DNA from: Halobacteriota archaeon
GTDB taxonomy: Archaea; Halobacteriota; Syntropharchaeia; Alkanophagales; Methanospirareceae
Assembly: GCA_049287525.1 (NCBI GenBank)
Contig: JBAQFZ010000059.1
Span: forward strand, 3,045-67,044
Direction of reading: 5' to 3'
Length of the DNA stretch: 64,000 nt
The notes under the pieces were generated by a model. The model saw only the letters and a program-made list of their open reading frames with translations, did no database searches and was not told the DNA's origin. Shown here piece after piece: positions 5,792-63,764 of this stretch. Position numbers and translations under genes: made by a program. Each line of letters opens with the position of its first letter. The first letter of the stretch is position 1.

Positions 5792-5856
5792 TTTTGCATC
5801 ACCTGAAAGTAAATACAAGGAGCATATATAAAAAACTTTCCAAGCGGTTGGCACTC

Positions 5857-42279: not shown

Positions 42280-43296
42280 CTATTTTTCCCTGCAACAACA
42301 GCAGTCCAATGCTTCTCCATACATGTAGTGACGAGCGATTTTTATCGCATCGCCCAGGAAGTCTATATTTCCACTGCAATCCACGTCTCCTGCCCACCTG
42401 CATTTTATGGGGTCGCCGTACATGTAGTGCCGTGCCACACCTATCGCATCGCCCAAAAAGTCCACGTTCCCGTTCATGTTCACGTCACCACACTTCCATG
42501 TATTGGTCAGGCAGTTGTTTGTTTCGTTGCTTTCGTCCACGGTATTATTGAAATCAGCACATACCGTTATGTTATCGCTTAGTGGTGTGTATGTCCATAC
42601 ATAGTTGAAACAACCGATATGACTATCGCCTGGTGCCAGAACTACTGGTACTGGGTCGTATTCCACTTCGAGACCGTCAACATACAACATCGTGTTATGC
42701 CCCGCAGAAGCTGTTCCATTACCCGTATTCGTTACGTTATAGCATATCGTGCAGTTATCAGTCCATGTATCAGTGACCTCCAGGTCTGGTCTTTCCCCGC
42801 ATGAGAATGTGCCGTTTTTCCATTCTACATCGAGTGGTAAGGCAGGTGGTGGTGATAGCAATGAACTACCCTCAATGAATCTCAAAGGAGTGGTGCAGAA
42901 ACTCGTACTGTTGCAGCAGTGAATCGTTAGAGTTCCAATTTGGAAAGTCCCATTTTTCGGACTCAGGGTCATGAACGCTATCCACTCTCTGCCATCAACG
43001 CTTCTATCCCACGTCGAATTTTGGGGTGGTAGCCAATTAGTAGTGTTAATTTCCCAAGTTGTTACATTTGCACACCCTGGATCATAAGAGAGGTATATCG
43101 TGCCACCTGCACAACCACGTTCGTCAGTTACATTAGCCCACACCTCTACCTCTGCAGTATTGCAATAAGGTGCATTGCTGTCCTCTGGTTTAAGCCATAC
43201 CAAGTTCTCTGCGGGCTGAGCGGAAGCTGCCGTTATCCAAACCATTGCAAATAACGCAGCTATTCCAAGGAATACTATTTCATTTTTGTGTTTCAT
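42280..43296 (-). CDS. secreted adaptor protein: N-terminal cohesin-like domain, CARDB-like domain, C-terminal type-I dockerin, ends CCCCREK
   Basis: Signal peptide. The N-domain is homologous to the N-domain of the 39237 protein (VW..PE.S.A.YCNT...YDP.CANVT). The dockerin has two Ca-binding repeats GDVNMNGNVDFLGDAIGVARHYMYG / GDVDCSGNIDFLGDAIKIARHYMYG. Confidence 0.68.
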   Translation of the reverse strand: MKHKNEIVFLGIAALFAMVWITAASAQPAENLVWLKPEDSNAPYCNTAEVEVWANVTDERGCAGGTIYLSYDPGCANVTTWEINTTNWLPPQNSTWDRSVDGREWIAFMTLSPKNGTFQIGTLTIHCCNSTSFCTTPLRFIEGSSLLSPPPALPLDVEWKNGTFSCGERPDLEVTDTWTDNCTICYNVTNTGNGTASAGHNTMLYVDGLEVEYDPVPVVLAPGDSHIGCFNYVWTYTPLSDNITVCADFNNTVDESNETNNCLTNTWKCGDVNMNGNVDFLGDAIGVARHYMYGDPIKCRWAGDVDCSGNIDFLGDAIKIARHYMYGEALDCCCCREK

Positions 43297-43539: not shown

Positions 43540-43556
43540 AGCGGCATTCAGCCGCT
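43540..43556 (-). terminator. hairpin overlapping the stop codon of gene 43548..46061
   Basis: agcggc attca gccgct. The same sequence is present at 47538-47558. Confidence 0.45.
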
Positions 43557-46061
43557 TATCTTACAGCAACATTTCAGGTCATACTGACCCGGATAGCCGA
43601 CGTAGTATAGCAGGTCTATCACGTCCGACATGTCTATCCGCTTATCGCAGTTCACATCCGCTGCCCATTCATTACAAAATCGGTATTGACCGGGGTAACC
43701 CACATAATATAGCAAGTCTATTACATCCGGCATGTCCACTACTTCATTGCAGTTTACGTCACCGCATTTCCATGTCTCGGTCAGGCAGTTATTGGTCTCG
43801 TTGCTCTCTGCCATAGTATTATTGGAGTCGGCGCATACCGTTATGATGTCGCCTGGTGGCGTGTATGCCCATGTGTAGTTGAAACATCCAAGGTAACTCG
43901 CATTTGGTGCCAAATTCACGGGTACAGAATCATATACCTTTTCAACACCGTCCACAAACAGCATTGTATTATGCCCTGCTGGTGCTGGTGCCGTTCCATT
44001 TCCGACGTTCGTCACGTTATAGCAAATAGTGCAGTTTTCTTGCCACGTATCCGTGATTTTAAGGTCTGGCTTCTCTTCTGGATATTTAACGGTTAACGTT
44101 ACAGTCACTGCATAAGGGTCCTCATCCGGATCATTAGAACTTATATTTAACCAGCCATGATATTCACCTGGAGAAAGACCGGTACAATTAACGCATACGT
44201 TCACCAGTTTTGAGCCACCCGGGGAAACCGTGAATGTTCTTGGATTGGCATCAAGCCAGCCTGAACCTGATTGATAATGAATTCCGATGTCATCCACCAC
44301 CAAACTACCGTTTCCCGCGTTGGAAACCGTGAATGTCTTGCAATTTACTCCTGCAGTAAGATTTGCATAATAAACAAAATTCTCTATTGCGCATTCGCCA
44401 TAACCAACCTTGAAATAGCCATCACCGTTCCAGCCAGAGCCCCAACTGTTTTTTACAATCCAGTAGTCACCTGTTTCATCGTAACCCGCTATTACAACTG
44501 CGTGATTCACATCGTTATCATCGGTGCATCTGTAAACCCCATTTACATCGAAATACCCGCCAAATTCTGAGCCTATGCCCATAGCAACAGAGAGCGGACC
44601 TTTTTCTATCAAACTATCTTTAATTGTTTCTATATCGCTTGGCACACTCCCGGTCTCGTCTATTTTCTTTAGCCTATCGCTCCAATCGGGACATCTATAT
44701 CTATCAGAACAAGGGCAATTTCGTGCAATATACGGGAAGCAAGCCTCGTCAGTTATTCCTTCGTCCCTTATAAATTCAAGTGCTGTTGAATGCCATCCCC
44801 CATTGCAATCTCCACAAACTATGCAGCAATCCGATACTAAATACTGCTCTGAAAGGTCGAAATCCAACTCCGGATTGTCATACAAGATATTGTATTCAGG
44901 TTCTACTATGCCTACGCCAGAAAAAGCCCAGCAACTGCCACAACTGCCTTGATCCTTAACCGGGGTCATCCAATCGCCTCCGTCTTTATTCCTCCAGTCG
45001 AAGTGGTTCGGGAGGCTTATCTCCTTTTCTTTAATTTCTTTCTTATTAAAGTCCGTATCGCCAACACTCTTATTCTTATTTTTGCCAAGTTTTATCTTTC
45101 CCACCTTACACTTCTCGCTTAAATTCAGTAGCTCCGAAACAGTTTTGCGGGTGCCATCAGGCAGCACACAGGTAGTAGAGTTCGTAGCAAAGCAGTCCTT
45201 CTTTCCTTTTGATGCTATAAGCCAACCCTTTTTAGCACAATAGGAAAACTCTCTCCCACACTCACCACGATAAAAAGCCCAGGCATCGCATTCCGCTTTG
45301 TCGGGCATCACACAGATGCCTCGCTCTCCTTTTTCTCCCTTTTCTATTTTGTATTCGTAGCCCATATCCATGCAGTAAACGGCAGCGGGATTTTTGATGC
45401 CTATAACTTCTCCTTCTGCTTTAGTACTGCCACTCTGAGTGCAGTTAAATTCTGACCCTTTCAAGGTTGTTATATCTGCATTAAGGCTACATGCCTCCTC
45501 ACAGCATTCGAAGTCCAGATGTTCTGGTGTTACGTTAATATCTGGCTCGCCACTGAGCCTGACCGTATTATTGCAGCACTTTGTCGGTAGTTCATCGCAG
45601 TCGCCAGGCACCACTTTAGAGCAGAACTTGTAGTCGCCTATTTCCCATCCCCCGGGAACAGGTGCGTATAACGTAACGGTCCACGTTATATAATATCCAC
45701 CGGGAAGCCAGTCAGATGTCGAATCCGTCCATATTAGGGTACCATCCGGAGCATATTCGTAGAAGTAGATGGTATAATAGCTGCCATCACCATAGTTTGC
45801 AAATTGTGAGTAATCTATGAAGTCGTCATAAGGTTCGTAGCAGGGATACTCTGACCAAACACCGTCGCCATACCATCTGAAGTCACACCCTCTGGCAATA
45901 GGCACATCGTAGTAGTCTTCAATTGGGGACTCTTGTTTTGAGATACTAATATTCAACTCCTGAAACTCCACAAATGCTCCTGACCCGGAGAGCAATGATA
46001 GTGTTAATATCATTGTCATCACTATCGCTATTACATTTATATTTCCTCTTTTAGTGTCCAC
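43548..46061 (-). CDS. secreted multidomain protein: papain-like (C1A) cysteine peptidase, CARDB-like domain, C-terminal dockerin, ends KCCCKISG
   Basis: C1 peptidase motifs KDQGSCGSCWAFS, NHAVVIAGYD and WIVKNSWGSGWNGDGYF. The CARDB PDLKITDTWQENCTICYNVTNVGNGTAPAPAGHNTMLFV is near-identical to the one in 47555..50014. Dockerin repeats GDVNCNEVVDMPDVIDLLYYVGYPGQY x2. Confidence 0.75.
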   Translation of the reverse strand: MDTKRGNINVIAIVMTMILTLSLLSGSGAFVEFQELNISISKQESPIEDYYDVPIARGCDFRWYGDGVWSEYPCYEPYDDFIDYSQFANYGDGSYYTIYFYEYAPDGTLIWTDSTSDWLPGGYYITWTVTLYAPVPGGWEIGDYKFCSKVVPGDCDELPTKCCNNTVRLSGEPDINVTPEHLDFECCEEACSLNADITTLKGSEFNCTQSGSTKAEGEVIGIKNPAAVYCMDMGYEYKIEKGEKGERGICVMPDKAECDAWAFYRGECGREFSYCAKKGWLIASKGKKDCFATNSTTCVLPDGTRKTVSELLNLSEKCKVGKIKLGKNKNKSVGDTDFNKKEIKEKEISLPNHFDWRNKDGGDWMTPVKDQGSCGSCWAFSGVGIVEPEYNILYDNPELDFDLSEQYLVSDCCIVCGDCNGGWHSTALEFIRDEGITDEACFPYIARNCPCSDRYRCPDWSDRLKKIDETGSVPSDIETIKDSLIEKGPLSVAMGIGSEFGGYFDVNGVYRCTDDNDVNHAVVIAGYDETGDYWIVKNSWGSGWNGDGYFKVGYGECAIENFVYYANLTAGVNCKTFTVSNAGNGSLVVDDIGIHYQSGSGWLDANPRTFTVSPGGSKLVNVCVNCTGLSPGEYHGWLNISSNDPDEDPYAVTVTLTVKYPEEKPDLKITDTWQENCTICYNVTNVGNGTAPAPAGHNTMLFVDGVEKVYDSVPVNLAPNASYLGCFNYTWAYTPPGDIITVCADSNNTMAESNETNNCLTETWKCGDVNCNEVVDMPDVIDLLYYVGYPGQYRFCNEWAADVNCDKRIDMSDVIDLLYYVGYPGQYDLKCCCKISG

Positions 46062-47554: not shown

Positions 47555-50014
47555 TCAGCCGCTTATTTCTATGCAACAGCATTTCAGTTCATACTGCCCA
47601 GGATAGCCGACGTAATACAGCAAGTCTATCACGTCCGACATGTCTATGCTGCTCTTGTCGCAGTTCACATCCGCTACCCACTCGTTACAAATTGTATATT
47701 GCCCCAGATAACCCACATAATATAGCAGGTCTATTACATCCGACATGTCCACTACTTCATTGCAGTTTACGTCACCGCATTTCCATGTCTCGGTCAGGCA
47801 GTTGTTGGTCTCGTTGCTCTCTTCTATCGTATTAGTGGAGTCGGCACATACCGTTATGATGTCGCCTGGTGGCGTGTATGCCCATGTGTAGTTGAAACAT
47901 CCGGTGTAGCTCGCATTTGGTGCCAAATTCACGGGTACAGAATCGTATACCTTTTCAACACCGTCTACAAACAGCGTTGTATTATGCCCTGCTGGTGCCG
48001 TACCATCTCCGACGTTCGTCACATGATAGCAAATCGTGCAGTTAGCTGGCCAGCAGACCCATATCCCGATTAGCTCCAGGTCTGGCAGTAACATTGCTAC
48101 TTCCGTCAACGGATGCCAATCTCCGCCTTGTTGTATACCACCAGACGAATTGTAGGGTAGCATTGTATCACCAAGCCCATCGCCATCTTCATCCGTACCG
48201 GCATAGTCGCTCCAGTAGTTACCGCCAGACCAGAACCCGCCGACGATGTTTGTTCCCGGAATAGGTGTGATATTCCATACGTTGGTTCCAGCATCATCAT
48301 CATCATAAGCGTTGTTCGTGTTGTCGAAGTAGTTATTGTAGATCGTATTGCCATTGGACAATATTAGAGTGATACCGATGCCGTTAGTGGTTACATTATT
48401 ACCCGTTATCGTAACGTTATCAGAATTATTCAGCCTGATACCACCCGCATTATTGGCAATCCGGTTCTCGCTGATATTGACACCATCCGGGCTGTTATCC
48501 AGATCAGATAAATTGCTCTTCGATGGCTGCATTCCTGACTCATAATCCTCACTTAGCAGCGCAAGTGCAGTAGGCGGCGCAGCATAATCAGCACTTACGA
48601 TTGGCTGCTGCAAAGCGCCACCATCTGCTACTGTGGCACCTGCAAAACCAGGCATCATACCAGAACCTGAACCAGAACCAGAGACGTAATCAAGCAGAAT
48701 GGCGTAGTCACTGTTGTTAACGATAGTATTGTTGTGAATCGAAGCATTGGTGAATGAGTAGAGTTTGATGCCGTAAGCATAACTAAAAGCCGCGTTGGCC
48801 GCGATGTAGTTATCTGAGACAATGGCACCCGAACTTTCTTTCAGATAAACACCGTATCCAAGATAGTCCCCAACTCCATTGTCTACCAGGGTATTTCCTG
48901 TAATCGTCAGATTCGCAGGAGCCGCCGCAGTATAAAAAAGCGTACTTAATATCCCATGATATATGTTATGCGATGCAGTGTTATTACAAATCGTGATGTT
49001 CTCGGTTGGCGAGTCCCCCAGAAAAATGCCGTGATACCCATTATTGTTCGCCGTGTTATTGTAAATCAAAGCGTCACTGCTCTTGTATATAACAATCCCG
49101 TGTACATCATTCTCCGATGCCGTGTTATTGATAACCGTATTGTTATAAGCCGTGTCATGGATATACACCCCATACATATTGTGCCTTGCCGTGTTGTTGG
49201 TTATTGTTGCGTTACGGGACGTCCAAGATAAAATGCCGGTCCCCGTATCTTGAGTAAGATTGAAATTATAGGAGACTTCATTACTGTCAATCAGGCAGTT
49301 ATCCGAAGAATACAGACGTATACCTTCCCAGTCATTATAATTGGCAGTATTGCGTATCAGCTTGTTATTATCTGATTCATAAAGATAGATCCCCATATGC
49401 CATTCGTTCGAGTTCGCGGTGTTGTTCGTGAGCGTATTGTTATCGCTTGAAGCCCACAAGTAGATGCCGTACTGTTTGTTCGCGCTTGCGTTGTTGTTGG
49501 CAATAGTGTTGTTAAATGAGTTGTACAAATAGATACCGCAATTGTTCGAGTTTACTGTGTTGTCCGTGATGCAGCAAGTATTAACGCCGCTAAGGTAGAT
49601 TCCCGCCTTAGCATAACTCGTTGCTCCTATCAACGTGAATCCTGAGATGTTCACCCGGTTTTGGTTCACCTCAACGACATGATCGCTTGCGTCGTTCGCT
49701 TGCACAATCACTACATCCCTGTTCTCGCCTTGCAACGTCAGCGACTTGTTCACGATTACGTTATCAAGGTAACTGCCGTTGTACACGTAAATCAAGTCGC
49801 CCACAGTCGCGTTATTTATTGCCGATTGTATCGGTGTTGAACTCGCATTGAACTGCGCCGGGGCAATCCACCACCCGCTTGTGTTCACATAAATTGCGGT
49901 TGCCGACGCAGTGCCCACGCTACCAAACGTCAATACGATAAACAGGAATAGCACAAGCACAACAGATTTTATTACTGCTGCCCCGCTTTTGCGCATTTTC
50001 ATAATTTTACCCAT
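47555..50014 (-). CDS. secreted right-handed parallel beta-helix (PbH1/NosD-like) protein, CARDB-like domain, C-terminal dockerin, ends KCCCIEISG
   Basis: Many PbH1 repeats (NTVNSNNCGIYLYNSFNNTIANNNASANKQYGIYLWASSDNNTLTNNTANSNEWHMGIYL...). NosD-like C-terminal GGNYWSDYAGTDEDGDGLGDTMLPY. CARDB and dockerin as in the 43548 protein. Confidence 0.75.
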   Translation of the reverse strand: MGKIMKMRKSGAAVIKSVVLVLFLFIVLTFGSVGTASATAIYVNTSGWWIAPAQFNASSTPIQSAINNATVGDLIYVYNGSYLDNVIVNKSLTLQGENRDVVIVQANDASDHVVEVNQNRVNISGFTLIGATSYAKAGIYLSGVNTCCITDNTVNSNNCGIYLYNSFNNTIANNNASANKQYGIYLWASSDNNTLTNNTANSNEWHMGIYLYESDNNKLIRNTANYNDWEGIRLYSSDNCLIDSNEVSYNFNLTQDTGTGILSWTSRNATITNNTARHNMYGVYIHDTAYNNTVINNTASENDVHGIVIYKSSDALIYNNTANNNGYHGIFLGDSPTENITICNNTASHNIYHGILSTLFYTAAAPANLTITGNTLVDNGVGDYLGYGVYLKESSGAIVSDNYIAANAAFSYAYGIKLYSFTNASIHNNTIVNNSDYAILLDYVSGSGSGSGMMPGFAGATVADGGALQQPIVSADYAAPPTALALLSEDYESGMQPSKSNLSDLDNSPDGVNISENRIANNAGGIRLNNSDNVTITGNNVTTNGIGITLILSNGNTIYNNYFDNTNNAYDDDDAGTNVWNITPIPGTNIVGGFWSGGNYWSDYAGTDEDGDGLGDTMLPYNSSGGIQQGGDWHPLTEVAMLLPDLELIGIWVCWPANCTICYHVTNVGDGTAPAGHNTTLFVDGVEKVYDSVPVNLAPNASYTGCFNYTWAYTPPGDIITVCADSTNTIEESNETNNCLTETWKCGDVNCNEVVDMSDVIDLLYYVGYLGQYTICNEWVADVNCDKSSIDMSDVIDLLYYVGYPGQYELKCCCIEISG

Positions 50015-53690: not shown

Positions 53691-55520
53691 ATGCACATGT
53701 CCGGAAAAAATCGAAAAGTTTTTAAAGGGATATGTAGCTATACAACTAAAATGAACAAACATTTGTGTACTGCCATGCTGATATTCTCAAAGAGTGCAAG
53801 GTTGGAGAGGTTTAAGAAAGAGCTTCTTCCTCTTATCTTGCTGTTTGCCCTGGCCTTTACAATACGCTTCATGGGTGGCGCATGGGAAACTAGATGGGAC
53901 AACGATGCGTACATGGCGAGACAGTCCGAGCATATCTATTCGTTCGGACACCCGGCAGTTCCGGACCCTTTCAGCTCATCGCCCTTATATCAGCCGGGTA
54001 TGGCATATCTTCTCGCCTTCGTGGGCTGGATAACTGACTTTATCCCATACAAATTTGCGCTGCCAGGCATGATCATCTCAGAGGGACTGGTGCCACCCTT
54101 GCTCGGGGCTGCCACCGTGCTGGTTGTATACTGGTTTGCAAAAAGCCTGTTTAATAAGCCTGCGGGAGTCATTGCGGGAGTTCTTGCTTCATTCTCCTAT
54201 TTTCTGATTTCCCGAACCATGAAAGGGTTCGTCTTCCACAACGCGCTTTCCCTTTTTCTCATCATCTTGACTGTTACGGTTGCTTGGCAAGCGCTCAAGA
54301 CGATTGAGGAATCCTTTCCACGTGATTTTAAGAGTCGAACTGTCTATTTGGCAACGATCCTCGCTCCGGCAGTTCTTATCGGCCTTACGGGTTTCACATG
54401 GGGTGGCTACTTTATCCTGCATGCGATACTGTTTTTTTACGGACTGCTGCTCACCGCTTTCACTTTGATCAGCCGCAATTCTCTGAATAGCGATAAAAAT
54501 TATCTGCTGAAGACCTGGGTGTTCATCTGTTCTACTCTGCTTTTAGGCTCTCTACTCGCATTAATGCTTTATCCGGTACGTGGACCACCGGAGATACTAA
54601 GAGCGGCACAGATGCTGCGATTTGCAGAAGGGCCGCTGGTCTATAAATTTACGGCAGACCTCCATGCGCCAGTACTCGGCAACTTTGACGCTCTTTTTGG
54701 ATCATTTCTGGTGATTGGGGTTGCCCTGACCGCAATTGGCGTATACGGTCTTTACAAACGCGACGAAGAACGAGGATTATATCTCCTTGTTGCACTGCTC
54801 GTTACCCTGGTTCCTGCAGTCAGAGCATACCATTTCATCGACATATTCTCAATGTTTGCGTATACTGCCCTCGGCATAGGTGCCGCGTTCCTCGTGGAAA
54901 GAGCAAGACGGAACGAGCAAAAATTCCTGTGGAAAAAGCTGGTGGCAGTAGCTGTTCTCATAATCTTAGGCATCGCATTCGTCAATCCTGTTATTGGTTC
55001 TTTACCTGCTGTGCGTTTTTCCTATACGATTAAACCAGAATGGAAAGATGCGTTTTGCTACATCAAAAATAATACGGACCCGGATTCCCTGTTCATCAAC
55101 TGGTGGGACTATGGCAATTCATTAGCGTATTTCGCACAACGGCGGTCGGTAATCGACCAGATGCACTTCCCAGACGATGAAGTAACGGCGGTCTCATCGG
55201 TCATCATGGCAACGGACCCTGAGGAAGGATTGCAGATAGCTCGAACTCTCAAACAGCAACACAATAGCTCAGAAGTATATCTGATGCTCTTTCTAAATGA
55301 TGCTTTTATATCGCCCGTGATAGGTTATGCTGCTGGGTACAAACAAGCATCCGTTAATGAGTCTATCGTGATGATTTGCGATGAGCATGGGCGATTGGTT
55401 GGGATGAATGATCTCACAAATCAGACTACCTACTACCGGCTCTGGACTAAACAGTCCATAGCTGGCTACACGCCTTTTTATGCGAATAATGAAGTAAAAA
55501 TATATAGGTTAAACGTGTAG
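53691..55520 (+). CDS. aglB: archaeal oligosaccharyltransferase AglB (STT3 family), short form
   Basis: Multi-TM N-terminus; INWWDYGNSLAYF is the WWDYG motif; 609 aa. The start codon is uncertain (alternative Met at +20). Confidence 0.78.
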   Translation: MHMSGKNRKVFKGICSYTTKMNKHLCTAMLIFSKSARLERFKKELLPLILLFALAFTIRFMGGAWETRWDNDAYMARQSEHIYSFGHPAVPDPFSSSPLYQPGMAYLLAFVGWITDFIPYKFALPGMIISEGLVPPLLGAATVLVVYWFAKSLFNKPAGVIAGVLASFSYFLISRTMKGFVFHNALSLFLIILTVTVAWQALKTIEESFPRDFKSRTVYLATILAPAVLIGLTGFTWGGYFILHAILFFYGLLLTAFTLISRNSLNSDKNYLLKTWVFICSTLLLGSLLALMLYPVRGPPEILRAAQMLRFAEGPLVYKFTADLHAPVLGNFDALFGSFLVIGVALTAIGVYGLYKRDEERGLYLLVALLVTLVPAVRAYHFIDIFSMFAYTALGIGAAFLVERARRNEQKFLWKKLVAVAVLIILGIAFVNPVIGSLPAVRFSYTIKPEWKDAFCYIKNNTDPDSLFINWWDYGNSLAYFAQRRSVIDQMHFPDDEVTAVSSVIMATDPEEGLQIARTLKQQHNSSEVYLMLFLNDAFISPVIGYAAGYKQASVNESIVMICDEHGRLVGMNDLTNQTTYYRLWTKQSIAGYTPFYANNEVKIYRLNV

Positions 55521-55651: not shown

Positions 55652-56485
55652 TCAACTCAACTCCAATGGCTTTGCCTCTGACCACATCTCATCAAATTTC
55701 TCTCTCAGCTCTTTTGCTAATTTCACATCCCATATCTTCGTCATCGCAAGTATTGAAGCGGGATTCTTTGGATTTGCCACTTCTAAAACGACCTTTTCGC
55801 GGTCAATAACCTCAAAATAAGAAGGAATAGCTTTTTTCATCACTCTTATTTCAACTTTATCCATTATTTTCTCTTTTACGCCAAGCTCTTTCAAATATTC
55901 CAGCTCTGGTATTATGAACTCTTCATTCAGCAGTGCTTTTATTTTTACTCCCCTCTCGGTAGCTTTAATCACCTCATAAAGTATGAGGTTATATTCACTA
56001 TCTTTAAACACACACTCCCCGTTTTGAGATTCACAGTCTAAGATAACGCAGCAGATTTCTTTCTCCGCCTCTTCAAAATTGGATTTTATCATTTCCGCAA
56101 CTTCTTCTATCCCGACCGCGGTTGTCCAGAAGGTTCTTTCTTTAGGTCTCGCAGGAATTCTCTTTGAAATAATTTCTTCTACCTGTAATGCTGCTTCAAT
56201 CGTCTTCTGCAACTGCTTTTCCATATTCTCCCTCTTTTGCTGCAATAGCGTCTTAAACGCCAATCGGGGTTTTCTTGCTATGTATCTCTTTGGTCTGGTG
56301 TTTTGAACCTCAATCAACCCCCTGGCAGCGAGCGAATTCAATTCCTGATACACTCTGCCAAACGGGATTTTTGTCGCCTTGCATATCACGCTTGCCTCGG
56401 CAATACCCAATTCCACTACTTTCAGGTACGCCTCAATCTCATAATTGCTCAACCCGAGTTCCTTGAGCAGTCTCTTCACTTCCAT
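55652..56485 (-). CDS. TrmB-family transcriptional regulator
   Basis: N-terminal LKELGLSNYEIEAYLKVVELGIAEASVICKATKIPFGRVYQELNSLAARGLI is a TrmB HTH; 277 aa. Confidence 0.72.
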   Translation of the reverse strand: MEVKRLLKELGLSNYEIEAYLKVVELGIAEASVICKATKIPFGRVYQELNSLAARGLIEVQNTRPKRYIARKPRLAFKTLLQQKRENMEKQLQKTIEAALQVEEIISKRIPARPKERTFWTTAVGIEEVAEMIKSNFEEAEKEICCVILDCESQNGECVFKDSEYNLILYEVIKATERGVKIKALLNEEFIIPELEYLKELGVKEKIMDKVEIRVMKKAIPSYFEVIDREKVVLEVANPKNPASILAMTKIWDVKLAKELREKFDEMWSEAKPLELS

Positions 56486-56564
56486 TTTACAACATCTTTA
56501 TAGGTTTTTTGTTGAGTATAAATCTTATCTATTCTATTGTAATTTAGATATATCAATATAAAAA

Positions 56565-57524
56565 ATGTATTATTTTGGGATTAAAAAGATGAGAAAAAGG
56601 GGAAAAATGGGAAGGAGTGTTTTAGCAGGTGGCATAGTTATCTGCATCGTAGCGGCTTTTATCAGCTCTTTGGCAATTCTAGTTCCGGCATTGGCTGCAT
56701 TGCAAGCAGAAGACACTGTGAAGGTCACCGTGAATGCACCTGAGTATGTAAACGGGACTTTTAATGCGAGCATAGATGTGGATAATATTACGGATTTCAA
56801 CTCAGGGCAATTCGACCTTTCCTTTAATTCAAGCGTGGTGAACGTAACTGGCGTAGGGGATGGTGAAATAGCGGGAGAAACGGTGCCGATATTCATGTGG
56901 GATTTCGTTAACGCAGACAAGGTGCGGGTGCTTGTCAGTATGCCAATGGGAGTAGGTTTAAATGGCTCAGGGCACTTAGCAGAAGTGGAGTTCGGGGTAA
57001 GAGGAGAAGAGGGAGATAGAAGCAAGCTGGACATTTCTGGTGGGCTGCTCGTGGATACCGAAGCGAAGGAGATAGAAGTGGAATGGTATCACGATGAAGT
57101 AACAGTTAAAATTAAAGCAGTTGTGTTTGATACGGGTGAAGGAACGTATCCAAGCATCTTTGGAACGCATGAAGGAACAATTACACCTGCTAAAGATATT
57201 TCCGTGCATAAGATGTACACATACCCATGCACAGGGACGGGTGGGCATTCTGAATATGTAAGGATTTGGAATGCCACATTGGATATGGATATAAGTGCTA
57301 CCTGGAAGGGCTATACCGGAAATTACCACAACATCGTTTTCCACGAACCATTCACACTATCCGCAGGAGAAACTTACAACTACACCATTAGAACAGGTTC
57401 TTATCCGCTGGTCCATCACACTGAAGAATTAGAATTAGACGGGGGAATGATGAGGTGCACAAAATTCACAGACGCAAATGGTCGCACTTTTAACGATTGG
57501 ATTCTGGCGATGAAACTCTGGTAA
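56565..57524 (+). CDS. secreted cohesin-domain protein with conserved C-terminal domain (paralogue of 22084..22986)
   Basis: Signal peptide. Cohesin VKVTVNAPEYVNGTFNASIDVDNITDFNSGQFDLSFNSSVVNVTGV...LAEVEFGV. The C-domain is shared with the 22084 protein. Confidence 0.68.
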   Translation: MYYFGIKKMRKRGKMGRSVLAGGIVICIVAAFISSLAILVPALAALQAEDTVKVTVNAPEYVNGTFNASIDVDNITDFNSGQFDLSFNSSVVNVTGVGDGEIAGETVPIFMWDFVNADKVRVLVSMPMGVGLNGSGHLAEVEFGVRGEEGDRSKLDISGGLLVDTEAKEIEVEWYHDEVTVKIKAVVFDTGEGTYPSIFGTHEGTITPAKDISVHKMYTYPCTGTGGHSEYVRIWNATLDMDISATWKGYTGNYHNIVFHEPFTLSAGETYNYTIRTGSYPLVHHTEELELDGGMMRCTKFTDANGRTFNDWILAMKLW

Positions 57525-57540: not shown

Positions 57541-58446
57541 ATGAAGGAAGAAAGAAAGGATAGATGCGATAAGGAGGTAGGAAGAAGAGAAAGAAGTTGC
57601 AAAGGAACCTTGAAGTTGCCAATAGTGGCTAAAGCAGTTTTACTTGTCTTAATGGCAATAGCGGTTACGTCTCTCACGCTTGCTCCCGCAGCAGCACAGG
57701 AAGCAGATGTTACAGTTTCGGTTAATGCACCGGAATATGTAGAGGGAAATACTTTTGTCGCTACCATAGCAGTGGATAGTGTAACCGACTTCAATTCAGC
57801 ACAGTTCGACCTATCTTTTAATCCCGATGTTGTGAAGGTAAGCAATGTAAAGGAGGGGGAAATAAACGGAGAGAATATTCCGATTGTCATGTGGGTTTTA
57901 AACAATGATAAGGATACTGTGCGGGTGCTTGCAAGTCTGACAATTGGAGAAAGTGAGAGCGGCTCCGGGTACTTAGCAGAAGTGGAGTTCGAGGTAAAAG
58001 GAGAAGAGGGAGAGAAAAGCGAGTTAAACCTCTCTAACGGGGAACTTGTTAATGAGACCGGGAAAATAATGCTATCGAATTGGCATGGTGCTGAGGTAAC
58101 AATAGGTGTTACGCCTACACCAACGCCAGAAGAGGAGGAAGATGAAGAAGAAACTACGCCAACGCCTACACAGGAACCCGAAGTAACTCCTACACTTACG
58201 CCGGAAGCAAATATAACAGAACCAATAGTCACAACGCCTACGCCAACATTAGCACATGGTGTAACGCCATTGCAAGAAGCAACACCAGCGGTAAAAACAA
58301 CGCCAAAGCCAACAGCACCGCCAACCACTGAGGAAAAGCTAACGCCCACACCAACGCCAAAGCCTGCCGCTCCAGGATTCGAAGCTATGTTTGCAATAGC
58401 AGTGATGCTGGCAGTTGCGTATGTTTTCAAAAAAGTGGGAAGGTGA
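57541..58446 (+). CDS. scaffoldin-like surface protein: one cohesin domain, Thr/Pro/Glu-rich linker, PGF-CTERM archaeosortase anchor
   Basis: Cohesin ADVTVSVNAPEYVEGNTFVATIAVDSVTDFNSAQFDLSFNPDVVKV...YLAEVEFEVKG. Linker TPTPTPEEEEDEEETTPTPTQEPEVTPT.... C-terminus PAAPGFEAMFAIAVMLAVAYVFKKVGR (PGF, then TM, then basic tail). Confidence 0.7.
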   Translation: MKEERKDRCDKEVGRRERSCKGTLKLPIVAKAVLLVLMAIAVTSLTLAPAAAQEADVTVSVNAPEYVEGNTFVATIAVDSVTDFNSAQFDLSFNPDVVKVSNVKEGEINGENIPIVMWVLNNDKDTVRVLASLTIGESESGSGYLAEVEFEVKGEEGEKSELNLSNGELVNETGKIMLSNWHGAEVTIGVTPTPTPEEEEDEEETTPTPTQEPEVTPTLTPEANITEPIVTTPTPTLAHGVTPLQEATPAVKTTPKPTAPPTTEEKLTPTPTPKPAAPGFEAMFAIAVMLAVAYVFKKVGR

Positions 58447-59810
58447 TAAAGGGAAAAATGAAAAGCAAAACGAAAATATTAGAAATAGCAATCGTGCTGT
58501 GCCTGGTGCTGTTAGTTTCTATGTCTACCTTACCAGGAATTGCCGCTGATCAAAACCAGGAAATGCAAAAAGTAAGTGCAAGCGAGGTTACAGCAGTTTT
58601 AGAGATTTACGGCAACGCAAATGAAGACAATACCATTGACATGCGTGACTTCACCTACACGGCGAGAATAATCTGCTGGTTAGAAGAGGAAACGGATTTG
58701 GCAGATGCAAATTATGACGGAAGAATAAGCGTGGCTGATATGACGCAGATAGGGCTGATTATTCTCGGCAGGGAAAGTGAGCTTACGCTTAGTGATAGCG
58801 CAGATAGAACGGTGACGATATACAAGCCAGTTGAGCGAGTAGTTATCGCGTATTGGATCGATACCGCTGTGACGTTACAGGCACTAAAAGCCGAGGATAC
58901 CGTGGTTGGTGTTACTGATGTCATAAAAGACGAGACAATACTCTTCCCCGAGCTCAGCAAACTCCCAAGTGTTGGATCAGATCCCGATCCTGCTGCTCTC
59001 GATTTTGAGAAGATACTGGAGCTTCGACCCGATATGGTCTTTACAGGAGGTTCTTCAGCGAACCCAACCGCCTATGAAGAAATTGCACGAAGGATACATT
59101 CTGTAAATCCAGACATCGCAGTAATTTTCTTTACTTTCTGCGACCCGGTGCTTTACATCGAGGAAGTAAGAAAGACAGGATATATCTTTGATAGGAAAGA
59201 GGAAGCAGAAGAGCTTATTAAGTTCATTGAGGAACATCTAAATGAGATTAAGGAAAAGGTTAGTAACATCCCTGAAGATATGAGACCAAAAGTTTACTAT
59301 GAGTTTTTCTTTGATTACTACACGAGCGGTGAAGGAACAACCTTTGGCGGAGATATCGAAACGGCTGGTGGAAAAAATGTCTTTGATGACCTTTCAGGCT
59401 TCGGCTACTCGTTGATACCTATGGATCCTGAAGAAGTGATAAATCGCACCCCAGAAGTTATAATTCACCATGTGGGAGGGGCTTATGCTGGTCAAGTTGG
59501 TTGGGGAACAGATGATGTAACTGCACTGCGTGATAAAAGAGAAGAGATTATGAATCGCCCCGGATTTGCTGCTATTCCCGCAGTGAAGAGCGGAAGCGTT
59601 TACACGCTCGCATCTGATGTTGTACTCTCCCCACTCTATCCAGTGGGTATAGCGTATTATGCAAAGTGGTTCTATCCAGAGCTATTCGAGGATTTGGATC
59701 CAAATGCGATTCATCAGGAATACCTCACTAAGTTCCTCAGAATAGACTACGACTTGAGCAGGCACGGCGTATTCGTGTATCATCCAGAGCAGCATCCAGA
59801 TGGAAGGTGA
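58443..59810 (+). CDS. dockerin-fused ABC-type substrate-binding protein (class III, FecB/BtuF/FhuD-like)
   Basis: Signal peptide. Dockerin repeats IYGNANEDNTIDMRDFTYTARIICWL / ADANYDGRISVADMTQIGLIILG. Then an SBP fold (TVTIYKPVERVVIAYWIDTAVTLQALKAEDTVVGVT...LELRPDMVFTGG). Confidence 0.72.
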   Translation: MIKGKMKSKTKILEIAIVLCLVLLVSMSTLPGIAADQNQEMQKVSASEVTAVLEIYGNANEDNTIDMRDFTYTARIICWLEEETDLADANYDGRISVADMTQIGLIILGRESELTLSDSADRTVTIYKPVERVVIAYWIDTAVTLQALKAEDTVVGVTDVIKDETILFPELSKLPSVGSDPDPAALDFEKILELRPDMVFTGGSSANPTAYEEIARRIHSVNPDIAVIFFTFCDPVLYIEEVRKTGYIFDRKEEAEELIKFIEEHLNEIKEKVSNIPEDMRPKVYYEFFFDYYTSGEGTTFGGDIETAGGKNVFDDLSGFGYSLIPMDPEEVINRTPEVIIHHVGGAYAGQVGWGTDDVTALRDKREEIMNRPGFAAIPAVKSGSVYTLASDVVLSPLYPVGIAYYAKWFYPELFEDLDPNAIHQEYLTKFLRIDYDLSRHGVFVYHPEQHPDGR

Positions 59811-60035
59811 TAATATGCTAGTGGTAGATAGCAAGCAGGTAGTGAGATAGCATGAAAATAGAAAATATGTCCCTTATTATGTGGTGCAAATCCCCGAGGG
59901 GGCGAAACGATAGGAAAGAAAGCGAAGGTATAGATAAAAGAAAAGGAGGTGAAAAGTATGACCTACGAAGAGTTTATGGAAGCTGGCTGCTTCAGCAACC
60001 ACTAAATAAACCTATGTTTGTGGGTATTACAAAAA

Positions 60036-60082
60036 ACTGAAAAATCGGGTGGTGGGGTGTCTCCCACCCCCTTTTATTTAAA
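60036..60082 (+). terminator. GC-rich hairpin plus T-run between the SBP gene and the cyclase operon (terminator and/or promoter TATA)
   Basis: gggtggtgggg tgtct ccccaccc followed by ccttttatttaaag; ATG of the cyclase at 60103. Confidence 0.4.
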
Positions 60083-60102: not shown

Positions 60103-61806
60103 ATGGATATAATGAGTGTGATAGATAGATCGAGGGAATATTTAATTACAAAACAGAGACAAGACGGATCCATTTATGGTGAAGTTGAGTACAGCATTTG
60201 GCCTAGTGCAGCATATCTGCTATTATTAAATTATCTTGGAGTTCATCACGGGAGAAAAATGGATTTAATTGAATGGATTATTGACCATCAAAATGAAGAT
60301 GGAAGTTGGGGAGTTATAACAGACAAGTCTAATGGAGATTACCAAAATACACTAATGGGGTTAGCAGCTGTAAAGGCGTATATGGGCAGAGACAGAGCAG
60401 AGAGAGCAAGAGAATGGGTTCAAACATTTTCAGGTGACAAACTATTAACTCCTTTTACAGCAATCCTCCTTTCGACTAAGGAAGAAGATATAAGAATTCC
60501 AATTCCAATATATCTCACCTCAGTCAAATTTGGCAAAAATTTAGGTAAACTTCATATGATATTCCCGAAACTTTTTTCATGGAGTATTTTCTTTTATCCT
60601 CCATCATGGCTTGGAGAGGATATTCATCCTTCCTTTCAAATAATATCTGTGTTAAAGAGAAAAAAGGATAAGAAAAAACTAAATTATTTTGACAAAATGA
60701 TCGTTAATCGTGCTGAAAAAAAGCTTACCGAGTTGCAGTTAGAAAATGGTAGTTGGTCATGCCTGGCGTTATCTACAATGTGTGCGATATATGCACTTCA
60801 TGAATTGGATCATGACGTCGGCAGTGCACCAATCACCAAAGGATTACAGTTTCTTAGCAATTTAATGGGGCAAGAAGGCAATTTTAATTTGTTCCGACTG
60901 AAGGTATGGGAAACCTCCCTTGCAGTAATAGCGCTAACTGAAAGTGATATGCCTCCGGGCAATCCAATAATAATAGCAGGAAATTTCCTGATTAGAGCTC
61001 AAACAGAAAAAGGGGGGTGGTCATTTGACTTCCCCAGCAACGTACCCGATAATGACGACACTGCCTTATCCCTTTTAGCGCTAAACCGTATACCAATCGA
61101 ACAAAAAAGTAATGCAGTTAAGCATGGTATAGATTATCTCATAAGAATGCAAAATGATGACGGCGGTTGGGGTGCTTTTGACAGGAATCAGTGCCGTAAA
61201 GACCCCGGGAAAAAACCGCCTTTTGAATTGTTATGCCTAATGGATCCCAGTACTGCTGACGTAACCGGGCACGTTCTCCAGGCATTGAAGGATGTGGGTG
61301 GCTTAGATAAATCGTCAAAGATAATTAGAAAAGCGATCAAGTGGTTGAAGAATGATCAAATAAAATGTGGTGCGTGGTGGGGCAGATGGGGAATATGCTA
61401 CATATACGGTACAAGTCGAGTGTTACATGGGTTAAAAGCTGTTGGAGAAAACTTACATTCTGATTATATTTTAAAAGCTATAAGATGGATGCAAGAAATC
61501 CAAAATCCTGACGGTGGTTGGGGTGAAGATATTGCCAGTTCTCGCTCTAATGAGCCAATATTTGGTCCAAGCACTGTAGAACATACAAGTTGGGCCTTGT
61601 TAGCACTGATGGATGTAAATATTGACCTCCGCTCAGAAGTAATAAGGAGAGGGATAGACTTTTTATTAAAATCTCAAATGGAAGACGGGAACTTTCCAGG
61701 AGTGCATACTGCAGATGGTATAGATCCGGTAAAATACGAATTGTACTCTGTTATATTTCCGCTTTGGGCACTATCAAAGTTCCAAAAAATGATAGGAGGG
61801 AGTTAA
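60103..61806 (+). CDS. squalene-hopene-cyclase-like class II terpene cyclase (SQCY / prenyltransferase-squalene oxidase repeat protein) with DxDDTA catalytic motif
   Basis: Five or more QW-type repeats (HQNEDGSWGV, LQLENGSWSC, AQTEKGGWSFD, MQNDDGGWGAFD, IQNPDGGWGED). DNDDTA at 61048-61059. SHC-like N-terminus (REYLITKQRQDGSIYG...YLLLLNYLG). Confidence 0.75.
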   Translation: MDIMSVIDRSREYLITKQRQDGSIYGEVEYSIWPSAAYLLLLNYLGVHHGRKMDLIEWIIDHQNEDGSWGVITDKSNGDYQNTLMGLAAVKAYMGRDRAERAREWVQTFSGDKLLTPFTAILLSTKEEDIRIPIPIYLTSVKFGKNLGKLHMIFPKLFSWSIFFYPPSWLGEDIHPSFQIISVLKRKKDKKKLNYFDKMIVNRAEKKLTELQLENGSWSCLALSTMCAIYALHELDHDVGSAPITKGLQFLSNLMGQEGNFNLFRLKVWETSLAVIALTESDMPPGNPIIIAGNFLIRAQTEKGGWSFDFPSNVPDNDDTALSLLALNRIPIEQKSNAVKHGIDYLIRMQNDDGGWGAFDRNQCRKDPGKKPPFELLCLMDPSTADVTGHVLQALKDVGGLDKSSKIIRKAIKWLKNDQIKCGAWWGRWGICYIYGTSRVLHGLKAVGENLHSDYILKAIRWMQEIQNPDGGWGEDIASSRSNEPIFGPSTVEHTSWALLALMDVNIDLRSEVIRRGIDFLLKSQMEDGNFPGVHTADGIDPVKYELYSVIFPLWALSKFQKMIGGS

Positions 61807-62799
61807 ATGGAGTATACACCATTTTTATTGATATTTCATATAACAGGAAGATGCAATTTACAGTGTGCATACTGCTATGCAAGCTCATATGACCGGACAG
61901 ATTTAAAAATTGAGGTGGTACAGGATATATTATCACAAGCCGCCGAGTTTGACACCAGACATGTCATTTTAAGTGGTGGCGAACCTCTGCTTCATCCTGA
62001 TTTCTATGAGATTGTAGAATACGCAAAGGAACTTGGGCTGAAAGTTCATATAACATCAAATGGCACGATGATTGATGAAATTGCTGCTGAGAAATTAAAA
62101 TCACTTGATGCAAACGTTACAATCAGCCTTGATGGTTCCTGTGTTGAGGTCAATGATCCGTTACGTGGAGCGGGAACGTTCAAAATGGCAATGAACAGCA
62201 TTGATAATCTTGTCAACTCAGGCGTCTATACCTCAATGCGGATGACTCTGGTAAAGCAAAACGTCAATGATGTGCGTAATTACATAGAACTGGCTATGCA
62301 ACTCAATGTCAATAGATGCATAATTGAACGGGTGACAGGTATTATAGAAATTCCGCAGTCCATGGAATTAGAACCATCAATCGCTGATGTGCTCCGATCT
62401 TTTAAAATCATGTCAGAATACAGGAATGTGAATGGGTTCAATGTCGGATCAAATGATCCACTATGGTTATTATTTCGAAAAGATATAGTGGAAAAATACA
62501 AAAACAAAACACATATATGTGGTGGATGCGTTGCTGGAGTAACAACAATAACCGTTAATCCTGACCTTACGGTCACTCCTTGCCCCAGGTTACCAATTAC
62601 GGTCGGTAATTTAAAAGATGATTCACTGGGAGATATCTGGCACAATTCTGATGTTCTTCAAAACTTACGAGATAGGGATCTTTTCGAGGGTTGTTCATCC
62701 TGCAACTACAAATACATTTGTGGTGGTTGTAGAGGTGCAGCACACGCTCATGGGTCATATTTAGGTAAAGATCCACACTGCTGGAGGGTAAACAGATGA
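61807..62799 (+). CDS. radical SAM / SPASM-domain enzyme 1
   Basis: N-terminal CNLQCAYC with SGGEPLL. C-terminal Cys-rich SPASM (CGGCVAGV...CP...GCSSCNYKYICGGCRGAAH). Its ATG overlaps the cyclase stop (TAAATG). GGAGGG RBS. Confidence 0.8.
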   Translation: MEYTPFLLIFHITGRCNLQCAYCYASSYDRTDLKIEVVQDILSQAAEFDTRHVILSGGEPLLHPDFYEIVEYAKELGLKVHITSNGTMIDEIAAEKLKSLDANVTISLDGSCVEVNDPLRGAGTFKMAMNSIDNLVNSGVYTSMRMTLVKQNVNDVRNYIELAMQLNVNRCIIERVTGIIEIPQSMELEPSIADVLRSFKIMSEYRNVNGFNVGSNDPLWLLFRKDIVEKYKNKTHICGGCVAGVTTITVNPDLTVTPCPRLPITVGNLKDDSLGDIWHNSDVLQNLRDRDLFEGCSSCNYKYICGGCRGAAHAHGSYLGKDPHCWRVNR

Positions 62800-63764
62800 A
62801 ATGCGTACTGTTAGTCACTGAATCATGTAATCTGAGATGTAAATACTGTTATATCAGCGCTGGCGAAAATAATGCGCCACTTGCACCAACGCAGCATATA
62901 ATGCATATTATTGACCTGCTGGATACAATTGGCATAAAAAAGTTAATCATCGGCGGAGGAGAGCCTCTCTTAAGAGAGGATATATTTGACATTTTAGATA
63001 AAGCTACTGCAAGAATGCCCACGCATTTACTAACAAATGGAACGTTGATAAACGAAAAAACAGCAAAAAAAATGGCTTTGAGTGGAATAGATGGTGTGAG
63101 CATTAGCCTGGACTCTCCTATGCCAAAAGTCCATGATGAACTTAGAGATGGGTCATTCACCTCGGTTATCAATGGTATAAAACTTTGTGTAAAAGAGGGG
63201 CTGAATGTTGACGTAGCGGCGTGTGTGACTACGAAAAACTTTGATTATGCACTGGATTTAATACTTTTTGCTGAAAATATTGGTGCCACTTCAATCACTT
63301 TTGAAGGCTTAAATCCCGTTGGGAGAGGAAAAGATTGTGCAAACTTAGCATTAACAGCAAGACAAACAGATACATTTTTACAAACTATATATGAGATACT
63401 ACATGATATAAAGCCGAACATTAAAGTAGTAGTATTTGACCCACAATGGGTCAGATGGGACCGTAGTGCAATGGGTTGTGAAGTAGGAAAAACCTTCTTC
63501 GGATTGCGCTCGAATGGTGACATACTTCCATGCACTAATCTCCCTATAACCTTGGGGAACATATTAGAAGATGACTTCTCAGCTATATGGAACTGCGAAA
63601 TGATGAATGCCCTCCGCACGAAGCGAAATGGCGGCTGCAATACATGTCAATATCGAGACCGATGTGGTGGATGTCGAAGTAAAGCGTATGCTGCGGGGGA
63701 TATATTTGGAAGTGATCCATCATGTTCGCAGGCACCGGAAGAGGAGGAGGTGAGGCAATGGTAA
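62796..63764 (+). CDS. radical SAM / SPASM-domain enzyme 2
   Basis: CNLRCKYC, GGGEPLL. C-terminal CEVG...C...GCNTCQYRDRCGGCRSKAYA. Start overlaps the upstream stop (ATGA). Confidence 0.8.
   Translation: MKCVLLVTESCNLRCKYCYISAGENNAPLAPTQHIMHIIDLLDTIGIKKLIIGGGEPLLREDIFDILDKATARMPTHLLTNGTLINEKTAKKMALSGIDGVSISLDSPMPKVHDELRDGSFTSVINGIKLCVKEGLNVDVAACVTTKNFDYALDLILFAENIGATSITFEGLNPVGRGKDCANLALTARQTDTFLQTIYEILHDIKPNIKVVVFDPQWVRWDRSAMGCEVGKTFFGLRSNGDILPCTNLPITLGNILEDDFSAIWNCEMMNALRTKRNGGCNTCQYRDRCGGCRSKAYAAGDIFGSDPSCSQAPEEEEVRQW

Follow-up and report, generated by a model that had tools for sequence, protein, structure and literature searches.

How might an archaeon hold the binding protein of a transporter at its surface when that protein appears to lack an anchor of its own? 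The question is raised by a 64-kb stretch of contig JBAQFZ010000059.1 from a Halobacteriota archaeon (hereafter the window), in which the gene for a substrate-binding protein (SBP) with an N-terminal dockerin-like module follows two genes for cohesin proteins, the nearer of which ends in a PGF-CTERM signal. A first-pass annotation of this DNA had proposed that the SBP is tethered to the cell envelope through a cohesin–dockerin contact. From the analysis below we regard it as probable, while short of assured, that the three genes form one transcription unit for the non-covalent surface display of a transporter binding protein.

Architecture of the cassette

The open reading frames (ORFs) of the window were listed, and the window proteins were searched with profiles from Pfam, at its gathering cut-offs, and from NCBIfam. 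The listing contains three genes on the same strand, 56565–57524 (319 amino acids, aa), 57541–58446 (301 aa) and 58443–59810 (455 aa), and places the latter two exactly where the first-pass annotation had them. Genes are referred to below by their first nucleotide (nt). The features of the cassette are as follows.

56565–57524, plus strand: first gene of the cassette, encoding a signal peptide, one cohesin and a C-terminal module, with no PGF-CTERM (Pfam Cohesin, 25.8 bits against 24.1)
57541–58446, plus strand: anchoring cohesin protein, with signal peptide, cohesin, Thr/Pro/Glu linker and PGF-CTERM (Pfam)
58441–58457, plus strand: gene junction, an AGGTGA Shine-Dalgarno-like motif overlapping the cohesin stop (sequence, NCBI call, family N-termini)
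58443–58547, plus strand: predicted SBP signal peptide (AlphaFold2 and the family N-terminal pattern)
58596–58778, plus strand: dockerin-like module, aa 52–112 (Dockerin_1, family profile, AlphaFold2)
58614–58649 (aa 58–69) and 58704–58739 (aa 88–99), plus strand: calcium loops of the dockerin-like module
58779–59810, plus strand: class-III (Peripla_BP_2) substrate-binding core of the metal-chelate/siderophore type (Pfam, AlphaFold2, Foldseek)

The 57541 protein consists of a signal peptide (aa 1–52), a cohesin (aa 57–188; nt 57709–58104), an 87-residue linker made up of 29% T, 24% P and 16% E (aa 189–275; nt 58105–58365) and a PGF-CTERM (aa 276–301; nt 58366–58443). All three cohesins of the window pass the Pfam Cohesin cut-off (PF00963, 24.1 bits), that of 57541 with 41.1 bits, that of the more distant gene 22084 with 40.9 and that of 56565 with 25.8. 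The PGF-CTERM passes the Pfam cut-off (PF18204, 23.4 bits against 18.8) and falls below that of NCBIfam TIGR04126 (13.0 bits against 24.5); its tripartite tail, AAPGFEAMFAIAVMLAVAYVFKKVGR, with a PGF motif, a hydrophobic helix and a basic end, follows the Thr/Pro-rich linker and is kept in homologs. Sequence matches of the cohesin to ScaB-type cohesin structures are weak (E 0.02–0.35). Of the 357 homologs of the protein, those that carry a name come mainly from Methanophagales/ANME-1 (ANME, anaerobic methanotrophic archaea). These Pfam scores and the linker composition bear out the first-pass description of one cohesin, a Thr/Pro/Glu-rich linker and a PGF-CTERM; the label scaffoldin given there does not suit a protein with one cohesin, which is better called a single-cohesin anchor.

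The cohesin of 56565 (aa 52–181; nt 56718–57107) is 47% identical to that of 57541, and its product is probably a second docking site. Its C-terminal module (aa 185–319; nt 57117–57521) belongs to no Pfam family and has 115 homologs, the named ones again mainly from Methanophagales/ANME-1. A module of about 135 residues, GTYPSIxGTHxGTITP...RCTKFTDANG...W, ends both the 56565 and the 22084–22986 proteins, is placed elsewhere after PKD and after NosD domains, and may serve in binding or in attachment to the surface. As for the enzyme that would process the PGF-CTERM, no archaeosortase gene is found within the 64-kb window. In a related locus from a Methanosarcinales archaeon (L083; loci of relatives are numbered in this way below), an archaeosortase-family Exosortase_EpsH gene (679–1503) lies four genes upstream of a cassette of one cohesin gene, a second with a PGF-type tail, and three SBP genes, and EpsH-related proteins are present in ANME-1 genomes (PMC5244752).

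The N-terminal module of the SBP contains two 12-residue loops, NANEDNTIDMRD (aa 58–69) and DANYDGRISVAD (aa 88–99), both with D or N at positions 1, 3 and 5 and D at position 12. The loop-helix unit is duplicated with a spacing of 30 residues, and in the AlphaFold2 (AF2) model of the whole protein, helices 67–77 and 97–108 directly follow the loops with a predicted local distance difference test (pLDDT) score above 90. Scored by itself, the SBP reaches 17.8 bits against Pfam Dockerin_1 (PF00404; E 0.0039, aa 59–102), under the gathering cut-off of 22.9 bits, and other tests were therefore made. Dockerin_1 matches at E ≤ 0.01 in 16 of 35 family members (best 4.7e-6), and the homolog P0079 has PF00404 among its precomputed Pfam domains. 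When a profile of 30 diverse family tags, as we call this module, is compared with the PDB, the five best matches are type-I dockerins aligned over both repeats (4fl4, CelS 2mte/1daq and C. cellulolyticum 2vn5/2vn6), at modest E-values of 0.002–0.01; the alignment to the Cel9 dockerin likewise spans both. The segment is a family-wide feature, as most of the best 120 of 1,524 SBP homologs cover 96–99% of the query including this segment, and the family alignment keeps IYGNANEDDTIDMRD...LADAxYDGxIxVxD...LIILGRE. An AF2 model of the dockerin computed by itself from the single sequence was all-beta with a pLDDT of 50.8 and was discarded.

We accept the module as a dockerin-type domain on the strength of sequence and model comparisons, with no formal Pfam membership for this one sequence. 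The two dockerin repeats of the first-pass annotation thus hold as regards the loops, the family profile, the AF2 helices and the cohesin neighbours, and do not hold as a Pfam assignment. A generic EF-hand-like calcium site with no role in cohesin binding would account for the sub-threshold score, and EF-hand proteins do appear in the PDB list; they rank below the dockerins there, mostly with one loop matched. Together with the duplicated unit at its 30-residue spacing, the Dockerin_1 matches among relatives and the conserved cohesin genes next door, this makes the EF-hand explanation highly improbable.

The SBP begins with what reads as a signal peptide, with an n-region KSKTK, a long h-region and a c-region LPGIAA, and predicted cleavage before D36 (between LPGIAA and DQ). 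The AF2 model has a helix at 10–27 with low pLDDT on either side. An N-terminal hydrophobic segment occurs in 179 of 181 family members, 110 of which show a strict c-region pattern of P or G followed by small-x-small; judged only by its LPGIAA-DQ type of c-region, cleavage of the signal peptide appears likely. A lipobox was considered and rejected, as I-V-L stands before the h-region Cys, which leaves no G, A or S at −1, and relatives have Y, F or M in place of this Cys. Likewise rejected was a C-terminal transmembrane (TM) segment or PGF signal on the SBP: the window protein ends ...VYHPEQHPDGR with no hydrophobic tail. The first-pass annotation had named a lipobox or TM anchor on the SBP itself as one finding that would speak against tethering, and what we see is a C-terminal hydrophobic anchor in 0 of 190 family members and a canonical lipobox in only 5 of 179. 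The SBP is therefore probably without an anchor of its own.

The remainder of the protein is a substrate-binding core. Peripla_BP_2 (PF01497) matches at aa 140–392 with 92.3 bits against a cut-off of 27.5, and the AF2 model of the whole SBP (pLDDT 87.9) has a long helix at 252–273, in keeping with two lobes that a single long helix connects. A Foldseek search of the PDB returns YiuA as the best match (9if3_D; E 6e-24, target TM-score (TMt) 0.80), with further matches to MolA (3psa), Veillonella FepB (4mo9) and H. pylori CeuE with Ni-His (4ls3). On these sequence and model comparisons the core is of the class-III metal-chelate/siderophore type, in agreement with the complete class-III fold of the first-pass annotation; the converse outcome, a domain with some other fold, did not materialise. 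The cluster of YiuA, MolA and CeuE (NikZ-like) gives the best structural matches (E 6e-24 to 1e-18, TMt 0.76–0.82), and the ligands of its members are Fe-siderophore or iron, molybdate/tungstate and Ni-(His)2. Because their identity to the window core is only 22–28%, ligand specificity cannot be transferred to the SBP, and a dockerin is present in none of these known proteins.

The first-pass annotation noted that no permease or ATPase gene of an ATP-binding cassette (ABC) transporter is adjacent, and a Pfam and TM scan extends this to the whole window: of the roughly 72 kb of the contig, these 64 kb contain neither a FecCD permease nor a transporter ATPase. The sole ABC-like ORF, 25258–27021, which we take to be ABCE1/RLI-like, was dismissed as a partner ATPase, being 587 aa long, 30 kb away and with a Cys-rich ferredoxin-like start, and the sole protein with at least five TM segments is the AglB-like product of 53691–55520. 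Such genes do occur in related cassettes. Locus L025 has the order FecCD (304 bits), ABC_tran, a cohesin gene (COH2), a cohesin-PGF gene (COH1-PGF) and three dockerin-SBP genes; the cassette of L012 ends in FecCD (312 bits) and ABC_tran; and in L003, which is syntenic with the window, a FecCD gene lies six genes downstream of the SBP gene. This gene association links the SBP family to ABC importers of type II, where one translocator would be served by many receptors.

Other genes near these cassettes relate to tetrapyrroles and metals. In L078 and L086 the dockerin-SBP cassette is followed by a CobN-Mg_chel gene (about 1,265 aa) and a ChlD-like AAA/VWA protein, in L003 by a NifH-like gene and two Oxidored_nitro genes and then FecCD, and in L001 by methyltransferases, two Oxidored_nitro genes and CfbE_C. 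Proteins of ~1,230–1,270 aa, probably CobN-like by their size, recur in the Methanothrix/Methanosarcinales arrays. This neighbourhood hints at a cofactor-related ligand.

Conservation of the cassette and probable pairing of tag and cohesin

Profile hidden Markov models of SBP core, tag and cohesin were applied to 77 loci and the window. They detect 250 ORFs with an SBP core, of which 196 also carry the tag; the ORFs often stand in tandem, up to nine to an array. The cohesin genes number 24, in 13 of the 77 loci and the window. In every cohesin-containing locus except L033, a cohesin gene directly adjoins a dockerin-SBP gene. There are 21 cohesin-to-SBP junctions with a gap of ≤400 bp, 19 of them distinct (two are near-duplicates), and in 15 of the 21 the cohesin gene encodes a protein with one cohesin domain and a PGF-type tail. 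As this sampling was centred on the SBP and biased accordingly, a second was seeded from homologs of 57541. All seven of its contig look-ups show the order (another cohesin protein)–cohesin(–PGF)–Peripla_BP_2, the last present in one to five or more copies. Given 19 distinct loci and seven of seven cohesin-seeded look-ups, the adjacency of cohesin and dockerin-SBP genes is more than chance.

The cassette is found in ANME-1 and in Methanosarcinales of the ANME-2c type (L027, L032, L049). The best genome matches of the window SBP are to a metagenome-assembled genome (MAG) of Methanosarcinales and to ANME-1 GoMg1, each at 61% identity, and no other sequence found exceeds 68%. The GoMg1 locus, L003, has the same gene order as the window, with TrmB on the minus strand, a cohesin gene with the C-terminal module, a cohesin-PGF gene and a dockerin-SBP gene, and its ortholog of 56565 has three cohesins ahead of that same module. 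This synteny places the source of the window among the relatives of ANME-1 (Methanophagales). Untagged SBP paralogs in L002, L004, L005, L006, L030 and others, from Methanothrix/Methanosaeta and Methanosarcinales MAGs, have a shorter N-terminal module, VPGDxNGDKIVSxEE...EGKITxxQLEEIKHIH, that looks like one good dockerin-type calcium loop plus a degenerate second one; these loci have no cohesin gene within 10 kb.

Three comparisons connect the tag with the cohesin. Paralogs within a locus have dockerin tags that are 83% identical and cores that are 38% identical (217 pairs), the pattern expected where a small number of sockets has to accept many cargoes. With the 67-residue tag as query, 1.84 billion representatives yielded 561 clusters. 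The best 150 of these include 93 proteins of 380 aa or longer, and 92 of them have the SBP core, always with the tag near the N-terminus, which indicates from sequence that this dockerin subtype is essentially dedicated to SBPs. Lastly, over 18 loci the identity of the adjacent cohesin correlates with that of the dockerin (r 0.71), also when SBP-core identity is controlled for (partial Mantel r 0.71, permutation p about 2e-4), with the qualification that shared lineage confounds this co-variation, dockerins being homogenised within genomes and cohesins following the genome. As shared lineage can yield part of the signal, we count the co-variation as consistent with pairing and not as decisive.

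The window also contains a second dockerin type, Cys-rich, in which CGDVNCNEVVDMxDVIDLLYYVGYPGQY occurs twice and is followed by CCC. It ends three secreted surface proteins.

43548–46061, minus strand: papain-family protease with CARDB and the Cys-rich dockerin
47555–50014, minus strand: NosD/beta-helix protein with the Cys-rich dockerin
42280–43296, minus strand: CARDB protein with the Cys-rich dockerin

The protease scores only 15 bits against Pfam Dockerin_1. Because the cohesin of 22084–22986 is only 23% identical to that of 57541, we propose it as a candidate partner of this Cys-rich type. With two cohesin and two dockerin types in the window, the assignment of partners follows adjacency.

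A proposed display mechanism and its alternatives

We propose that 56565–57524, 57541–58446 and 58443/58458–59810 constitute one transcription unit whose products would build a non-covalent surface display of the SBP. The 57541 protein would be secreted, and an archaeosortase would process its PGF-CTERM to leave it lipid-anchored, so that its cohesin would be presented on the 87-residue Thr/Pro/Glu-rich stalk, which is probably glycosylated. The SBP would be secreted with its signal peptide cut after LPGIAA, and its N-terminal, calcium-dependent dockerin would plug into the cohesin of 57541 or into the similar one of 56565, docking that would keep an anchor-less SBP at the cell surface. There, the SBP may capture a metal chelate or tetrapyrrole-like ligand and pass it to an ABC importer of the FecCD/BtuCD type encoded elsewhere. 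The tethering put forward in the first-pass annotation is in this respect indirectly supported, on sequence grounds, by the conserved gene order, the constraint on the tag, the co-variation, the absence of another anchor and the FecCD/ATPase genes of related cassettes.

A number of observations weigh against this proposal. That cohesin and dockerin bind each other here is something we infer from their sequences, and the dockerin itself has a sub-threshold Pfam score and modest matches in the PDB. At about 20 residues, the h-region is compatible with an uncleaved N-terminal signal anchor. The window lacks the permease and ATPase to which a ligand would be delivered, and it harbours the second cohesin and dockerin types described above. 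Methanothrix arrays of the SBP family usually have no cohesin gene within 10 kb, and the co-variation shares its signal with lineage.

Other explanations of the cassette are conceivable. One is a cellulosome-like assembly in which several dockerin-SBPs load onto unanchored or multi-cohesin proteins (one cohesin here, two to six elsewhere), and which could serve for extracellular capture or storage of scarce metal cofactors, shared within a consortium and loosely coupled to a permease. Proteins with two to six cohesins do stand beside a PGF-cohesin in seven loci (L003, L012, L025, L027, L049, L081 and L085), as many as nine paralogous SBPs with almost the same tag stand in tandem, permeases nearby are far fewer than SBPs, and the 56565 product has a cohesin and no PGF-CTERM; the three cohesins of its GoMg1 ortholog leave room for such an assembly. 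Set against this are the window itself, which has one SBP and single-cohesin proteins only, and the FecCD/ATPase pairs that occur within cassettes. The two explanations overlap, as an assembly of this kind does not exclude tethering, and as the account of this cassette we consider it unlikely.

Less probable still is that the SBP retains its N-terminal helix as a membrane anchor, with the dockerin recruiting cohesin-bearing surface proteins or organising SBPs around a permease. The length of the h-region and the AF2 helix at 10–27 would suit this, as would the many family members with only about seven residues between hydrophobic core and dockerin; the conserved helix breaker and small-x-small pattern, by contrast, make a typical signal peptidase I site, and an SBP with an anchor of its own would have no need of a lipid-anchored cohesin encoded just upstream. 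The dockerin might also bind a cohesin encoded elsewhere, on an S-layer, another cell or a bacterial partner, so that adjacency would reflect co-regulation and the tag would act in adhesion or consortium exchange. Such a role matches the general proposal of the ANME literature for cohesin–dockerin pairs. In its favour are the two types of each domain in the window, the roughly 110–150 dockerin and 80 cohesin domains of ANME-1 genomes (PMC5244752) and the cohesin/dockerin proteins encoded by syntrophic sulfate-reducing partner bacteria (PMC10553843). The strict gene order in seven of seven look-ups, a dockerin subtype specific to SBPs and co-variation with the adjacent cohesin argue against it, and we hold this explanation to be very unlikely.

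Returning to the lipid-anchored display, it is possible, and we suggest it only tentatively, that it is part of a hitherto undescribed modular system in ANME-1 and ANME-2, and perhaps Methanothrix, in which a few cohesins (lipid-anchored or scaffold) hold up to nine interchangeable SBPs that feed varied metal chelates and tetrapyrrole-type cofactors to one FecCD importer. Dockerin tags would be kept uniform within a genome, and the ligands could include Ni, Co, F430, and cobamide or heme precursors. Such cofactor feeding fits the recurrence of CobN/ChlD chelatases, NifH/DK-like reductases, CfbE and NirJ/AhbD-like radical SAM proteins as neighbours. If true, the display would be a cofactor-scavenging machine important to methane-oxidising consortia.

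The junctions and flanks of the cassette bear on its expression. The first-pass annotation had the cohesin and SBP genes overlapping at 58443/58446 and took them to be co-transcribed on that ground. The cohesin stop codon, TGA at 58444–58446, lies within AGGTGA, 10 nt ahead of an ATG at 58458, and this ATG begins the 450-aa protein of the NCBI call, as opposed to 455 aa from GTG 58443, while the family consensus N-terminus is MKTK. Because of the Shine-Dalgarno position, the 450-aa call and the MKTK start of relatives, the true start is probably ATG 58458, which would leave an 11-nt spacer with an embedded ribosome-binding site in place of a 4-nt GTGA overlap. A comparable GAGGT is found 11 nt 5' of ATG 57541. 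The overlap thus probably falls away; co-transcription of the two genes is likely under either start, and the tight coupling of all three genes still holds with the spacer.

Two further features flank the unit.

55652–56485, minus strand: TrmB-family regulator, with a TrmB helix-turn-helix and DUF7436 (Pfam TrmB 59 bits, DUF7436 84 bits)
60054–60079, plus strand: short GC hairpin (GGGGTG/CACCCC) followed by a T-rich run (sequence only)

The hairpin and T-run lie in a 292-nt gap 3' of the SBP gene and likely mark the 3' end of the three-gene unit; a 62-aa ORF at 59852–60040 was set aside as probably spurious. On the other side, an AT-rich intergenic region of 79 nt (56486–56564) separates the divergently transcribed TrmB gene from the cohesin operon. 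As the regulator has an 85% identical ortholog at the same position in L003, it may control the cassette. Two genes upstream of the cassette is an AglB/STT3-type oligosaccharyltransferase gene (53691–55520, plus strand), whose sole NCBIfam match is to the "archaeosortase A system-associated" STT3 subfamily, far under its cut-off (69 bits against 450), and which may have a part in glycosylating the Thr-rich stalk. Downstream, 60103–63764 on the plus strand begins with a squalene-hopene-cyclase-like gene (567 aa; SQHop_cyclase_C 275 bits; NCBIfam hopene_cyclase 264 bits, under the cut-off of 431), which is unusual in an archaeon, followed by two radical SAM/SPASM genes with best NCBIfam matches to tetrapyrrole enzymes of the NirJ2/AhbD type (170–200 bits, under their cut-offs).

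Relation to known systems

Metal and cofactor acquisition by ANME archaea in sediment consortia is, to our knowledge, poorly understood, and we know of no pure culture of these organisms, whose demand for nickel and cobalt tetrapyrroles is very large. A conserved operon of a presumably lipid-anchored cohesin and a dockerin-SBP supplies specific, cheaply testable partner predictions for the undeciphered cohesin–dockerin network of ANME, and the cassette offers a concrete function, the retention of transporter receptors, beside the usual guess of adhesion.

The size of that network is apparent from ANME-1 genomes with 112–149 dockerin and about 80 cohesin domains (Timmers et al. 2017; PMC5244752). 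Dockerin-bearing substrate-binding proteins are described as common in ANME by Chadwick et al. (2022, PLoS Biol; PMC9012536), from the same lineage and with the same fusion as in the window, and their S4 tables list GOMG1_23 5570–6844, the dockerin-SBP of L025, as PF01497/TroA_f. The fusion class is thus already known, and the gain for the window gene is incremental. The display that the first-pass annotation called unusual is so when compared with archaea in general; within ANME lineages it is the norm for this SBP family and already in print. In the parts of that work considered here, the treatment is a catalogue of fusions that leaves partners open, with no tie to PGF-CTERM cohesins or to a cohesin–SBP operon, and PGF-CTERM is mentioned only for cytochromes (PMC9012536). 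A full-text literature search on cohesin and dockerin in combination with PGF-CTERM, SBPs and the lineages, so far as its texts were accessible, found no paper describing the operon pairing, and in the accessible text of ANME papers that contain the terms PGF-CTERM, cohesin and dockerin no connection is drawn between them. Beyond the published fusion class, the modest new element is the pairing with a PGF-CTERM cohesin at the level of the operon.

Archaeosortase anchoring is already known for this SBP fold, as haloarchaeal proteins of TIGR04281 (peripla_PGF_1) carry a PGF-CTERM. They share the Peripla_BP_2 fold class with the window SBP, which matches the model at E 6e-20 and falls outside the family, with 71.6 bits against 325 and no C-terminal signal. 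Both systems would retain an SBP via the archaeosortase system; in TIGR04281 the PGF-CTERM is on the SBP itself, whereas in the window it is on a separate cohesin partner, making a split, modular anchor.

The closest functional analogue is the anchoring of cellulosomes on Gram-positive cells through sortase- or SLH-anchored cohesins, such as R. flavefaciens ScaE (LPXTG) and C. thermocellum SdbA/OlpB. There, as is predicted for the window, a covalently anchored protein presents a cohesin into which a secreted protein with a two-repeat calcium-binding dockerin plugs, and PGF-CTERM/archaeosortase is the archaeal counterpart of LPXTG/sortase; such anchoring is also described in general terms in PMC9012536. 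The cargo of the window is a transporter binding protein, in contrast to the glycoside hydrolases or scaffoldins of cellulosomes, its dockerin is N-terminal, and the anchor would be a membrane lipid in an archaeon with no cell wall of the bacterial kind. A further likeness is to the Sulfolobus "bindosome", in which sugar-binding proteins with pilin-type signal peptides are assembled at the surface by the Bas system. It is an archaeal precedent for the display of SBPs by protein–protein assembly in place of a lipid or TM anchor, and its mechanism is entirely different, as the bindosome relies on type IV pilin-like assembly and involves other SBP classes in another phylum.

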